Part shown: one piece after another, positions 12,032-59,079 of the stretch | How positions within the stretch are numbered: position 1 is the stretch's first letter | How the letters are laid out: each line of letters starts with the position of its first letter | Source of the DNA: Hyphomicrobiales bacterium | GTDB lineage: Bacteria; Pseudomonadota; Alphaproteobacteria; Rhizobiales; HXMU1428-3 | Direction: 5' to 3' | NCBI GenBank assembly: GCA_021775425.1 | Contig: JAJFHX010000048.1 | Location: 45,445 to 109,444 of the forward strand | DNA length: 64,000 nucleotides | Program-made: the position numbers and the translations under genes | Notes under the pieces: generated by a model | Database searches by the model: none | Seen by the model: the letters and a program-made list of their open reading frames with translations, nothing else | Told to the model about the DNA's origin: nothing

Positions 12032-12187
12032 AATTCGAGTTTTGACCGAGATTCTGCACTGCGTCCAGTAACTTTAGGGGAGAAAACGTCCTATACAGAC
12101 AAGTTATCCATAGAAATGACACCAATTCAGTTACCCTTTTGACAAACAATCCCTTTTTTTTGCCACGTGACTACACTATATTGAGTC

Positions 12188-12597
12188 TGCGGGAGAATTT
12201 CCGCTATGGCGATAAACTGTCATCGTAATAAACCATTCGGACCCGGGGGCGGTACCCGGCGCCTCCACCAAAAGCCCATAACACCGCAACGAATACCAAA
12301 ATTAAAAGTGTAACTCGAAGTCAACTTTCAAACTTAGCGATTTACGCAAATGGTATTTTAGACAGGTTAGCCTGTGTGGGTTTTTGATGGGGGCGAAATA
12401 GGATCGACGAGGGTGTAAAGGATGGTCTTTCGCTCGGCATGGTACCACCGCATCGGACCATTATAGTAGTTGCAAATGACAACTATGCTCCAGTTGCACA
12501 AGCTGCTTAATGCAGTGACGTGTGCTGAAATAAAACTCCTGATCGGTTAAGCTCGGTCAGGCGCGGTTTGGAGAGCACCGGGCAACAGAAGCTCTCC
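12188..12597 (+). ncRNA. ssrA: Permuted two-piece tmRNA gene with tag ANDNYAPVAQAA
   Basis: Acceptor piece ends GGGGGCGGTACCCGGCGCCTCCACCA at 12270. Coding piece starts GGGGGCGAAATAGGATCGAC at 12389, giving a G3-U70 pair. Tag frame 12472..12510. 3' hairpin GGAGAGC/GCTCTCC. Outer boundaries approximate. Confidence 0.95.
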
Positions 12598-12754
12598 ATT
12601 TAATTTTGGCATGACCAGTTGCATCAAGATTCTGTCAGCAACTGAATTTGCTGTAGAAATGATCTGAACTGAATAAATTTTTTAAATTTTATAAGAATAC
12701 TAATGTATAAAAAATTGGTATCAGTAGTACAAAGTGAAAGAGGCCTGACCCGTC

Positions 12755-54943: not shown

Positions 54944-56053
54944 TTACAATTGAAGAGACTTAATCCCAAGGTCAGTTTCATCAAACTCTAAAGGCGGATG
55001 CACTGTCCGAATGGCAGACCGTAAAACAGCTGAACGCGCTCTTTTATTGAATGACATCTCTTCTTCACTAGCTTTAACAGCCTTAGGGTTAATGATTTGA
55101 AAACTTGGGCAACTTTCTTTGTTAAGATCCGGTAAATGTCTGGATTGATTTGGCACACGCCCCGCCGCTGTGCGCAGGTAATTTTTCACGATTCTGTCTT
55201 CAAGAGAGTGAAACGAAACCACAACCAGCCGCCCACCGGGCTTTAAAATCTGGCTGGCAGCATTCAACCCTCTCAGCAATTCCCCAAGCTCATCATTGAG
55301 ATAAATTCTGAGCGCCTGAAAAGAGCGTGTCGCCGGGTGTATCTTGTCACTCGCCTTTTTAAAGACCACCTTTTCAATCAGCTCAGCAAGCTCTGTTGTG
55401 GTCCTGAATGGTTCATCCACCCTGCGCTCAACAATCGCTTTTGCAATATAGCGGGATTTACGCTCTTCGCCGAAACGATAAAGCACATTGGCTATCTCTT
55501 CTTCAGCAAGGCCATTAACAAGATCCGCCGCAGTCGGCCCTGATTGAGACATCCGCATATCAAGCGGCCCACTGTTCCTGAATGAAAAACCACGCCCCTC
55601 CTGGTCCAGTTGCATGGAAGAAACGCCAATATCAAGTACAACGCCGTCAACCTGGGTAATCCCGAGTTTCAGCGCATGAGAGACCATATCAGAAAAGCGC
55701 CCTTCACAAAGCTCTAGCCTCGGCCCGAATTCTCTCAGCATAGAGCGCCCGTCCCTGATTGCATCCGGGTCCTGATCAATGCCAATGACCCGCGCATTCG
55801 TGCCTGATAAAATCGCCCGCGAATAACCGCCGGCCCCAAACGTACCGTCAATGTAAATTTCTTCATTGTCAGAGGAAATGCCATCGGCAACCGTTTTAAT
55901 GACAGTGCTGAGCGTATCTTTATCTTGCCGACGCTGCTTTTTGTGATCACGTTCCGGCGTTTCAAGCAGAGCCGTCATCACTTCATTTAAAAGGACAGGA
56001 ATGTGACGGTCGGTACCGCCTGCAAAGCCTTCTATTTTCGCCTCGCTCACCAT
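54944..56053 (-). CDS. rsmH: 16S rRNA m4C1402 methyltransferase
   Basis: HIPVLL, DGTFGAGGYS, LDIGVSSMQLD, HPATRSFQALRI, SFHSLEDRIVK. Confidence 0.96.
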   Translation of the reverse strand: MVSEAKIEGFAGGTDRHIPVLLNEVMTALLETPERDHKKQRRQDKDTLSTVIKTVADGISSDNEEIYIDGTFGAGGYSRAILSGTNARVIGIDQDPDAIRDGRSMLREFGPRLELCEGRFSDMVSHALKLGITQVDGVVLDIGVSSMQLDQEGRGFSFRNSGPLDMRMSQSGPTAADLVNGLAEEEIANVLYRFGEERKSRYIAKAIVERRVDEPFRTTTELAELIEKVVFKKASDKIHPATRSFQALRIYLNDELGELLRGLNAASQILKPGGRLVVVSFHSLEDRIVKNYLRTAAGRVPNQSRHLPDLNKESCPSFQIINPKAVKASEEEMSFNKRARSAVLRSAIRTVHPPLEFDETDLGIKSLQL

Positions 56054-56189
56054 CATCACTCCTACCCTTAACAAATTATGGCCAATTGACCCTGTTCATT
56101 ACCAAGCTGTTCTACTTAATTTACCATACCTCGGCTGAGATAGCTCAATTTCATCTCACTGAAAATTAAAGCACTTGACAAAAACCCTT

Positions 56190-56651
56190 TTATTTTTCCC
56201 CTGTTCTTGCCTGCCCTAGCAGCTTTCTCAAATCTCTGACCTTGCCGCGTGCTGCGTTCCGCGCTGCCTCAAATTTAGCAGGCTCCCACATCTGAAACTT
56301 GTCCCCAAGCCCGACAAACGTCACCTGTCCCTCAAATCCTGCCACATCGCGAAGCCGTTGCGGTAAAGTGATACGGCCATCATTATCTATTTTAATATAT
56401 TCACTTTCACCAAACAGCGCTGTTGCAAGCTGGTCTTTTTCATCTGAATAAGGCGCCAGATCTTCAAGCAAACCGCGAATATGTTTGACAAGCCGGGGCC
56501 CGCCAGCATCAAGCGCCTCTGCATCAAGCGCCGGATGGCAGAATATTTCGTCAGAGTTTTCTTTGGCCAGAACCGTGCGAAAAGATGCCGGGACAGAAAC
56601 CCGTCCCTTGGCGTCTATCTTATTCGTAAAGCTGGAAACAAACTCATCCAT
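56190..56651 (-). CDS. mraZ: Transcriptional regulator MraZ
   Basis: NKIDAKGRVSVPASFR and DNDGRITLP, two SpoVT-AbrB-like repeats. Confidence 0.95.
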   Translation of the reverse strand: MDEFVSSFTNKIDAKGRVSVPASFRTVLAKENSDEIFCHPALDAEALDAGGPRLVKHIRGLLEDLAPYSDEKDQLATALFGESEYIKIDNDGRITLPQRLRDVAGFEGQVTFVGLGDKFQMWEPAKFEAARNAARGKVRDLRKLLGQARTGEK

Positions 56652-56890
56652 CAGCGCAGCTCACAGGTTTAAATTAAATGCCCGATAGTCTTGAGAAGCG
56701 GCACAACCGCCCTCACTGCTCTGGATCAAATCCCCCCGATTGAGGTCCCAGGCTTTCGTAAAAGTTCAAACTGACCAGATCCCAGACGATCCCATTTTCG
56801 CGGCTTCTTATCTCCGCTCCATCTGAAACGCTTCACTTCAAAACTGAAAAGACCCCTCAATCCAACTTTGAAGCACCAATTTGAATGGAG

Positions 56891-56956
56891 AAAAAAAGGA
56901 GGGTTGGCGGCAGCACCGCCTGTGGCCTCGTTGGCAATGCGCTCACACCAACCCTC
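56891..56956 (-). terminator. Terminator/attenuator-like structure in the mraZ leader
   Basis: Minus-strand GAGGGTTGG...CCAACCCTC 9-bp stem followed by C and T7. Confidence 0.6.
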
Positions 56957-56977
56957 ATCAATCCCACATCATCCAAA

Positions 56978-57017
56978 TGGGTATATATGGAATACTATGG
57001 GATTTTATGGGTGTCAA
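56978..57017 (-). promoter_or_regulatory. dcw (mraZ) promoter overlapped by four MraZ-type boxes
   Basis: Minus-strand TTGACA (57017..57012)-N17-TATTCC. Plus-strand TGGGT, TGGAA, TGGGA and TGGGT at an exact 10-nt period starting at 56978, 56988, 56998 and 57008. Confidence 0.75.
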
Positions 57018-57023
57018 CGGAAA

Positions 57024-57046
57024 TTAATGGTTTATTTAGGATTAAC
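57024..57046. promoter_or_regulatory. Two overlapping CtrA-like boxes just upstream of the mraZ -35
   Basis: TTAA-TGGTTTA-TTTA and TTTA-TTTAGGA-TTAAC, each one mismatch from TTAA-N7-TTAA. Confidence 0.5.
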
Positions 57047-57505
57047 CATGGGAAAACCTAAATATTTTGCCCCTTTTCACGAAAAACTATCTGCAATAAC
57101 GGTTTTCAGAGCCACAAAATCACGCAAAACAGCCGCGATTCAGCCAGAAACTGCCAAAATTCTTCGAAATTTCATCAATTGAATGCCTCAGGCGAACGCC
57201 GTGGCAAAGAAGCAACAACAGGGCGGTTTTCCAGGGTGATCCCTTGAGAGAAAATCAGTTAATCCTGCCCAGCGCCCGGAACACCACCACCACTCCCAGA
57301 TTAACCCACAGCATTGACCCTTCAGAGAATTGACGTCCCATAAAGGAAGTGGCAAAACCAGAGACTGAATTGAATTTGAGTGAATTGTTGATTATGTGAA
57401 AATCGTCAATGTTCTGCCCTCTTCACTCGCTAACGAGAAATCAGAGCGTCTCTCGCCTTCAAGGCCTACGAAACAACTCCGTTCAACGGGAAAGAATGAA
57501 TAAAA

Positions 57506-57901
57506 ATGAGTCAGCAAGCGGCATCGAGTTTCACTGTCACTTCCTGGGTTGAACAACCCTTTGAAGGTGAAACCGGCGGCATTAAAATTACGCAGGCTGT
57601 TGTTTCCACCAGCTTTGTAGGAGACGTCACGGGCGTTGGCTCTGTGATCTACATCATGAAGCACCAGCCGGATGGCACAGCCAAATTCATCGGGCTTCAA
57701 CAAATCAACGGCGCCATAGGGGGGCTGAACGGCAGTTTCGCCATTGAGCAAACCGGTTATTTTGATGGCAAAGAAGCCAAGGGAACCTGCGTGATTAAAC
57801 AAGGCACCGGAACAGGCGCTCTTGCAAACATTAACGGCCAGGGTGAGTTCACCGCACCCATGGGCCGTGAAGGCACCTTAAATCTGACCTTCAGTCTTTA
57901 A
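57506..57901 (+). CDS. DUF3224 domain protein
   Basis: FTVTSWVE, FVGDVTG, GSFAIEQTG, GTGTGALANING; all-beta pattern. Confidence 0.8.
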   Translation: MSQQAASSFTVTSWVEQPFEGETGGIKITQAVVSTSFVGDVTGVGSVIYIMKHQPDGTAKFIGLQQINGAIGGLNGSFAIEQTGYFDGKEAKGTCVIKQGTGTGALANINGQGEFTAPMGREGTLNLTFSL

Positions 57902-57937
57902 TCAGTTATTACGGAATTAAATGCCAGATCAGGCAAG

Positions 57938-58543
57938 TCACTTGCCTTCAGGTGGCTGCGTCGCCTGCATTGAAGGCCGCAACCTCATTTTTTGATACCA
58001 CGCTGAAAGATCCGTATGCCGGTCACGCCATTTCATATGCGGCATTCTGAAATCCACATAAGCCATAGCGCAGGCAATTGAAATATGACCCAGATTGATC
58101 TGCTCATCCATGGCTTTGATGGTTTTAGCCGCCGCACCAATACCGCGCGCCACTGCAATTTCATCCCGAATGATAAGCTCTTTAATCTGTTTTTCAGCAG
58201 GCCTGTTCCGCTCTTTAACAGAACGCACCGCAACATCCATAATCGTATCCGCTAATGTCTGAGCTTGCAGCACAAACCACCGGCTGGCTCCACTGGCAGG
58301 CACAAATTTCGGCCCCTGCATATTGGTTTCAATATAATCAGCAATCAGTTTGCTGTCATAGAAGGAGACACCGTTCTTCAAAACCAGCACCGGAATCCGC
58401 GCCATCGGGTTATGTTCAAGCAGCTCAGCCGGGTCTTCCCATGGGTTACAACTGGTCAGCTCAATATCGTCATAGCCCTTTTCAATCAGCAACACCCGGA
58501 TTTTTCTGACAAACGGCGATGTTGGACTGCCTAATAATTTCAT
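57938..58543 (-). CDS. Glutathione S-transferase family protein
   Basis: SPTSPFVRKIRV, NPMARIPVL, YDSKLIADY, ISIACAMAYVDFR. Confidence 0.9.
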   Translation of the reverse strand: MKLLGSPTSPFVRKIRVLLIEKGYDDIELTSCNPWEDPAELLEHNPMARIPVLVLKNGVSFYDSKLIADYIETNMQGPKFVPASGASRWFVLQAQTLADTIMDVAVRSVKERNRPAEKQIKELIIRDEIAVARGIGAAAKTIKAMDEQINLGHISIACAMAYVDFRMPHMKWRDRHTDLSAWYQKMRLRPSMQATQPPEGK

Positions 58544-58638
58544 TTCTGCCCCCGCAATAAACAACCCGTCACACGCACTGGTTGTGTTTTATTTTCATAG
58601 ATTTGCTCCCTGTGTCAAGAAACAAACCTTTATTTGCT

Positions 58639-59079
<441 letters not shown>

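Follow-up and report, generated by a model that had tools for sequence, protein, structure and literature searches.

What determines the level of the long dcw operon in bacteria is not yet well understood. The MraZ operator, as analysed by Eraso et al. 2014, reportedly consists of repeated GTG(G/T) or TGGGN boxes at a 10-bp period in E. coli and Mycoplasma. Published MraZ boxes have the form GTG(G/T) with a 6-nt spacer, with three boxes in most bacteria and four in Mycoplasma (PMC12957436). Besides autorepression by MraZ, the UpsM/StsR system is the one RNA-level mechanism that we found described in Alphaproteobacteria, and it is reported to be exclusive to Rhodobacteraceae. In particular, UpsM (RSs0682) is a 206-nt terminated small RNA derived from the 268-nt 5′ UTR of mraZ and the dcw genes in Rhodobacter (Cereibacter) sphaeroides and other Rhodobacteraceae (PMC5089854; PMC8266604); the authors' conclusion was that only this family combines a long leader and a terminator with the lack of a private mraZ start (PMC5089854). 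In another phylum, the mraW RNA motif (Rfam RF01746) is a conserved 5′ UTR structure before dcw genes of Actinobacteria, and it has been seen as a transcribed leader in Corynebacterium (PMC3890552).

The window, by which we mean the whole analysed stretch of 64,000 nt from a Hyphomicrobiales genome, contains a dcw cluster that begins with mraZ and continues with rsmH, ftsL and ftsI (open reading frame list). A divergent DUF3224 gene at 57506 marks the upper border of the mraZ intergenic region. The leader in between carries an element that is probably an UpsM-like attenuator or small RNA in its logic, built from a new RNA motif. Its features, in window coordinates, are as follows.

56190..56651, minus strand: mraZ, first gene of the dcw cluster, ATG at 56651 (open reading frame list; 153 aa; Pfam PF02381, E = 8.8e-17)
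56989..57017, minus strand: promoter PmraZ, sigma-70-type; -35 TTGACA at 57017-57012, 17-nt spacer, -10 TATTCC at 56994-56989
56977..57052, minus strand: CC(C)AT box array, a putative MraZ operator; 10-bp period, about -70 to +6
56963..56981, minus strand: P1, small 5′ hairpin CCCAU...GUGGG, +2 to +20 of the predicted RNA
56899..56956, minus strand: P2, long imperfect hairpin of 11 + 10 bp; body of the RNA motif and predicted terminator stem in the window's genus
56956-56946 and 56909-56899, minus strand: P2 arms, 5′ GAGGGUUGGUG and 3′ CGCCAACCCUC, read directly
56922..56929, minus strand: apical-loop motif GAGGCCAC in P2
56891..56897, minus strand: U7 tract directly after P2 and a C; predicted part of an intrinsic terminator
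56972-56958, minus strand: mini-ORF MMWD*, ATGATGTGGGATTGA, read directly
56652..56890, minus strand: spacer from the U-run to the mraZ ATG, part of the read-through leader; poorly conserved

A preliminary description of this DNA, made from its letters, had proposed a promoter about 330 nt upstream of mraZ, and TTGACA-N17-TATTCC indeed occupies that place, with a predicted start near 56982. The long hairpin followed by a U-run that it had described was likewise found, with both arms, the C and the U7 tract in position, and is conserved in the window's genus. A simple promoter and terminator scanner run on the window called neither PmraZ nor the P2 terminator. The scanner accepts only -10 elements whose last base is T and hairpins with loops of 3-8 nt, and so its rules bar a -10 element ending in C and any loop longer than 8 nt; the omission is a limit of the scanner and no evidence against the signals. 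Plus-strand open reading frames of 104, 58 and 48 aa and a minus-strand frame of 44 aa overlap the leader region, and a Pfam scan of those of 104, 58 and 44 aa gave no match. Elsewhere in the window, an RNase P RNA of class A (Rfam, 294 bits) lies at 58636-59078 on the minus strand, 1.7 kb upstream of the mraZ promoter, and an alphaproteobacterial permuted (two-piece) tmRNA (Rfam, 279 bits) lies at 12150-12600 on the plus strand.

The promoter is overlaid by boxes with an exact 10-bp period, with up to eight box starts (57052, 57040, 57030, 57020, 57011, 57001, 56991 and 56981). The four boxes starting at 57011, 57001, 56991 and 56981 form the core CCCAT-N5-CCCAT-N5-tCCAT-N5-CCCAT, which has one match in the window where none is expected (100 shuffles). 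Across 23 orthologous promoters, the position profile has information peaks every 10 bp at eight positions, of which the distal two are weaker. TTGAC and TATCCC, the latter being the relatives' -10 element, are nearly invariant at a fixed spacing in all orthologues. Further, a pattern scan of a genome collection, whose degenerate pattern yields mostly chance matches and is of use for alphaproteobacterial promoters, placed the core TTGAC-N-CCCAT-N4-ATCCCAT-NN-TATCCCAT upstream of mraZ in metagenome-assembled genomes labelled Bauldia, Parvibaculum, Hyphomicrobiaceae, Rhodospirillales and others, where the leaders are about 70-200 nt long. As a sequence pattern, the core of the PmraZ box array is common to mraZ promoters across Alphaproteobacteria, in several orders. 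The array puts at least three G-rich boxes with a 10-bp period on the mraZ promoter; since its ATGGG boxes, on the opposite strand, match the published ones in period and core and cover -70 to +6, it is likely an MraZ operator.

Several other signals were noted at these promoters. The sequence TAAA-N7-TTAA at 57024-57038 on the minus strand, about 42-56 nt upstream of the predicted start, resembles a CtrA box, and in other families (loci L140, L143, L144 and L164) TTAA-N7-TTGA overlaps the -35 element; CtrA motifs have been reported at mraZ in S. meliloti (PMC3616915). In a record titled Candidatus Cybelea sp. (L118), the alphaproteobacterial promoter and box core CCATTGACCCCCATGATATCCCATGGTATCCCAT stands upstream of a mraZ homologue at about 3745 on the minus strand, in a contig that may be mis-binned.

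With the 449 bases that precede mraZ as query, a BLAST search of 40 related genomes returned a single conserved block in 12 of the 13 same-genus genomes, corresponding to query positions 49-210 (57052-56891 in the window) at 76-85% identity. One end of the block is a short way upstream of the promoter and the other coincides with the final U of the tract; reading the boxes as an MraZ operator would explain the start at 57052. Downstream of the U-run, nothing aligns between the window and the same-genus genomes, while mraZ itself is 82-89% identical. The preliminary description had made its proposal depend on conservation of the structure in relatives, and the survival of the whole promoter-to-U-run block in these 12 genomes answers in its favour.

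Beyond the genus, a covariance model built from the MAFFT-aligned structure (R1) was run on 150 genomes of the order, from 100 genera, and gave exactly one match per genome, in 7 genera. A second covariance model (R2) matched 13 of the 151 genomes in the order sample, belonging to families f1, f11, f19, f34, f40, f43 and f52; family f14 was found by R1 only, so that 8 families carry the element. The occupancy is high within family f40 (35 of 41 genomes and 8 of 9 genera with R2) and R2 matched two of the three genomes of f11. In every genome examined, the element lies directly after PmraZ and upstream of mraZ. R2 was also run on 150 other families of the class, one genome per family, and had no match. 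Similarly, no Rfam 15 family matches the leader in a search of the region 55500-58500 at E <= 10, and none matches in three orthologues at E <= 1. As far as these searches reach, the RNA motif is uncatalogued and limited to part of the Hyphomicrobiales.

The conserved block encodes a structure that is more stable than its composition predicts. In particular, a 106-nt stretch folds at -41.4 kcal/mol, compared with -30.4 +/- 3.3 kcal/mol for 200 dinucleotide shuffles (z = -3.4), none of which folded as low; the whole 343-nt leader has unremarkable folding (z = -0.49), and the structure is therefore confined to the first ~91 nt. When 14 orthologues were folded one at a time, nearly all gave two hairpins, a small one at the 5′ end and a long imperfect one whose 12-nt loop includes GAGGCCAC. 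In an alignment of 36 sequences that was fitted to the covariance model, and which thereby favours the structure, 87.9% of cells are paired, compared with 49-60% when the partners are slid; both sides changed in 21 of the 27 pairs (120 cells), and on each of five measures all 500 shuffles fell short of the observed value. An independent MAFFT alignment points in the same direction, with 84.1% of the structure paired, compared with about 50% when slid. The preliminary description had suggested looking for covariation across orthologous leaders, and the long hairpin passes this examination.

The covariation differs between the helices. Helix 1 (P1) is 88.5% paired over the 36 sequences, with 3 of 7 pairs changed on both sides, and its 5′ half is the last operator box. 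Helices 2-4, which make up P2, are 82-96% paired and have compensatory changes in 18 of 20 pairs. The stems vary widely among orthologues, with arm pairs such as GCAUUGCC/GGCGGUGC, CAGGAU/AUCCUG and CUUCG/CGAAG, and two segments are nearly invariant: the P1 5′ side, CCC(G/A)UUCG, and the loop GAGGCCAC, which at least 90% of the 36 aligned sequences share, between variable flanking stems. Overall, the comparison of orthologous sequences shows that transcripts starting at the predicted site would begin with a conserved structured RNA of ~91 nt, composed of P1 and P2.

The anatomy of a terminator is found at the 3′ end of this RNA. In silico, the stem base GAGGG.../...CCCUC followed by C and U7 has the make-up of an intrinsic terminator, and U6-U9 follows P2 in all 12 same-genus orthologues; a U-run also stands at the stem base in genus g65 and in several members of family f40. 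In the high-GC families, the U-run is variable or absent and the hairpin is kept in many. Within the window's genome, 107 of the 165 sites with a hairpin and T6 outside open reading frames fall within 120 nt after a stop codon, a distribution by which this genome uses canonical hairpin and U-run terminators elsewhere. The U-run is retained although the bases that follow it drift; for this reason the terminator anatomy appears to be under selection in the genus, and we infer that P2 and U7 form an intrinsic terminator there, with a predicted RNA product of ~91 nt. P2 is atypical for a terminator, being 58 nt long with a 12-nt loop, and the U-run may partly reflect low G+C content. Judged across the families, the motif's conserved function is something other than termination; the retention of the hairpin in relatives without a U-run indicates that the hairpin and its loop have a function independent of termination.

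Genus members differ in the length of the spacer after the U-run, with a range of 32 to about 250 nt: one relative (L011) has 32 nt before the mraZ ATG, two others (L009 and L010) have ~85 nt, and the window has about 245-248 nt. Directly after the terminator, a second hairpin (CUUCAAAGUUGG...CAGUUUUGAAG) at 56834-56874 on the minus strand contains GGGG-N-CUUU-N-UUUU, and the group L002-L007 has GAAGCGGGGGCUUUGUUUU at the matching place; this second hairpin may be a weak back-up terminator or a processing site.

The invariant loop GAGGCCAC is presumed, from its conservation, to be the docking site for a trans-acting partner, either protein or RNA. No consistent complement of GAGGCCAC exists within the leaders or the mraZ start region, and several orthologues have none of at least 6 nt. 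In the genome, the complement GUGGCCUC has 49 matches, of which 7 are outside long open reading frames and none is at a plausible translation start. One of the matches comprises the 3′ acceptor strand, discriminator and C74 of tRNA-Cys. The tRNA-Cys 3′ end GUGGCCUCCA (G000 contig C8:19642-19715, outside the window) is complementary to GAGGCCAC, and the 5′ junction of the G000 pre-tRNA-Cys reads AGA|GGCCAC. As a loop partner, tRNA-Cys was rejected: the tRNA-Cys of genome G081 has GUCGCC and its leader loop keeps GGCC, and since the two do not co-vary, the match is probably a coincidence. Two other roles for the loop were also discarded. It does not read as a Shine-Dalgarno sequence, there being no start codon 5-10 nt after GAGG in family f40, and it does not mark a regulon of similar hairpins, as GAGGCCAC lies in the loop of a strong hairpin only once in the genome. 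Elsewhere in G000, on contig C24 at ~55810-55886 (outside the window), an intergenic region has GCGTTCCGTACATTTT three times in tandem, with the last copy degenerate, immediately before GTGGCCTC.

The explanation that best joins these parts, namely a phased-box promoter, a conserved leader RNA, a predicted terminator with its small RNA, and a partner for the loop, has a probability of roughly 0.55 as a whole. According to it, MraZ would bind the box array and repress its own promoter, and transcripts would start with the ~91-nt structured RNA, in which P1 is followed by P2 presenting GAGGCCAC. P2 and U7 would then stop a fraction of the transcripts near 56891, freeing a small RNA of ~91 nt, and only read-through transcripts would bring the 330-nt leader into mraZ-rsmH-ftsL-ftsI and beyond. 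The element would thereby cap the number of transcripts that enter the division operon, as UpsM does in Rhodobacter. Since relatives that lack the U-run still have the hairpin and loop, the primary conserved job of the loop would be recognition by a trans-acting partner, which could alter termination, stability or processing. A more specific version, offered tentatively and at less than even odds, is that P2 and GAGGCCAC define a new class of cis-regulatory RNA, dedicated to docking a protein or small RNA through which dcw transcription, stability or termination would respond to a cellular signal in at least 8 Hyphomicrobiales families; low-GC lineages would later have added a U-run to this ancestral element, turning it into an UpsM-like terminator and small RNA.

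Other explanations divide the same evidence differently. The hairpin could be a docking or stability element of the 5′ UTR and nothing more, with little termination in vivo and a U-run of minor importance in a low-GC genus; the long P2 with its large loop fits this idea, as does the retention of hairpin and loop without a U-run in L014, L140, L147, L157, L159, L160, L162 and L163. We consider it unlikely, though worth keeping in view, since the U-run is present in every one of the 12 genus members even though the bases next to it cannot be aligned, it also abuts the stem base in g65 and several f40 members, and a GC-rich stem base with U7 is the canonical signal that the window's genome uses. 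Alternatively, promoter and terminator could constitute a free-standing small-RNA gene, with mraZ expressed mainly from a second promoter inside 56652-56890. A secondary start site is known for at least one mraZ ortholog in agrobacteria (PMC10469942), from which it follows that a second promoter could exist in the 248 nt that separate the window's U-run from the ATG; a TTAATT island about 25 nt before the ATG is conserved in the group L002-L007 and the window, and according to Weber et al. most non-Rhodobacteraceae have proximal mraZ starts. Against this, the spacer lacks conservation, and its minus strand has no promoter-like site between the terminator and the mraZ ATG according to a scanner that covers alphaproteobacterial promoters poorly; moreover, the boxed upstream promoter is common to mraZ across Alphaproteobacteria, including genomes with short leaders. 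In L011, the 32 nt after the terminator leave no room for a private promoter, so that dcw transcription there must pass the terminator, which supports a cis-acting attenuator. On balance, the separate-gene arrangement is rather improbable.

The preliminary description had also favoured a regulated switch, in which competing hairpins or translation of MMWD* would choose between terminator and anti-terminator. The alternative pairings GUUGG/CCAAC and GGCGG/CCGCC do exist in the window, as does the mini-ORF at 56972-56958, and a ribosome stopped at 56958 would cover the 5′ arm. This part of the proposal did not hold up in the relatives, where the competing helices are 58.1% paired over 36 orthologues, no better than shuffles (59.0%) and against 39-54% in slid controls; the consensus is a single rod, with no mutually exclusive helices of the kind expected of a riboswitch or structural switch. 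The mini-ORF is real as a reading frame, but neither its length nor its presence is conserved: it has no Shine-Dalgarno sequence, its size in the genus ranges from 4 to over 20 codons, and its ATG is missing in other families, so that the conserved leader peptide and ribosome-binding site of a ribosome-dependent attenuator are not seen. Open reading frames across the terminator were considered and rejected as well; their frames shift between close relatives and their starts are not conserved, and the C-rich 3′ arm makes some of them begin MPPPP. Indels of a single base within the hairpin (a 1-nt deletion in L005 relative to L003, and an indel between L148 and L147) leave no conserved reading frame. 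With helices, mini-ORF and frames all unconserved, there is no evidence for a riboswitch-like or translation-coupled switch, which we regard as very doubtful. Hardly credible, finally, is conservation purely at the level of DNA, through protein sites downstream of the start and with an incidental RNA fold. The 5′ half of P1 is an operator box, and in the genus the downstream G-rich segments GTGGGG and TGGGGG resemble inverted boxes, yet these segments are not phased in other families, pairing is kept while the stems change (double changes in 21 of 27 pairs), and an invariant 8-nt loop between variable complementary arms is the signature of an RNA element.

The reading as a phased-box promoter followed by a conserved RNA with terminator anatomy can be set beside the systems described for dcw genes and leader terminators. 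Like the MraZ operators of E. coli and Mycoplasma, the array consists of short G-rich boxes with an exact 10-bp period that overlap the promoter and start site. Its boxes have the opposite orientation, reading CCCAT on the coding strand (ATGGG on the non-coding strand), and they number 6-8, which exceeds the 3-4 boxes of the operators studied so far. The rnTrpL RNA of Sinorhizobium meliloti (PMC6614838) is comparable in that a leader terminator releases a small RNA with possible action in trans, whereas the leader here has no conserved leader peptide. The mraW motif is another orphan structure in a dcw leader and is unrelated to the present element, which has no RF01746 match at E <= 10, occurs in a different phylum, and lies upstream of mraZ rather than mraW.

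The likeness to UpsM, which the preliminary description had emphasized, stands with regard to position and logic and fails with regard to kinship. As with UpsM, the element lies between the dcw promoter and mraZ, within the mraZ 5′ UTR as defined by the predicted start; the long leader contains a predicted Rho-independent terminator; termination would give a small RNA and read-through the operon mRNA; and phased MraZ-type boxes stand at the promoter. The differences are that it shares no sequence or structure similarity with UpsM, that its predicted RNA is ~91 nt rather than 206 nt, that it belongs to the order Hyphomicrobiales and not to Rhodobacteraceae, and that its hairpin presents an invariant loop and is found in relatives even where no U-run follows. 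In Gymnodinialimonas mytili, a member of the Rhodobacteraceae, the mraZ locus has a strong hairpin and U-run about 110 nt before mraZ, and R2 found no significant match there (best 8.8 bits, E = 0.2); neither that leader nor the window's matches any Rfam family. From these results, the element is analogous to UpsM and not a member of its family. A second, unrelated leader RNA thus occupies the same position in another order, here with terminator anatomy, which suggests that gating of dcw entry by a leader terminator arose more than once. Being compact, with strong covariation and one invariant 8-nt loop, the motif offers a tractable handle toward a new regulator of cell division.
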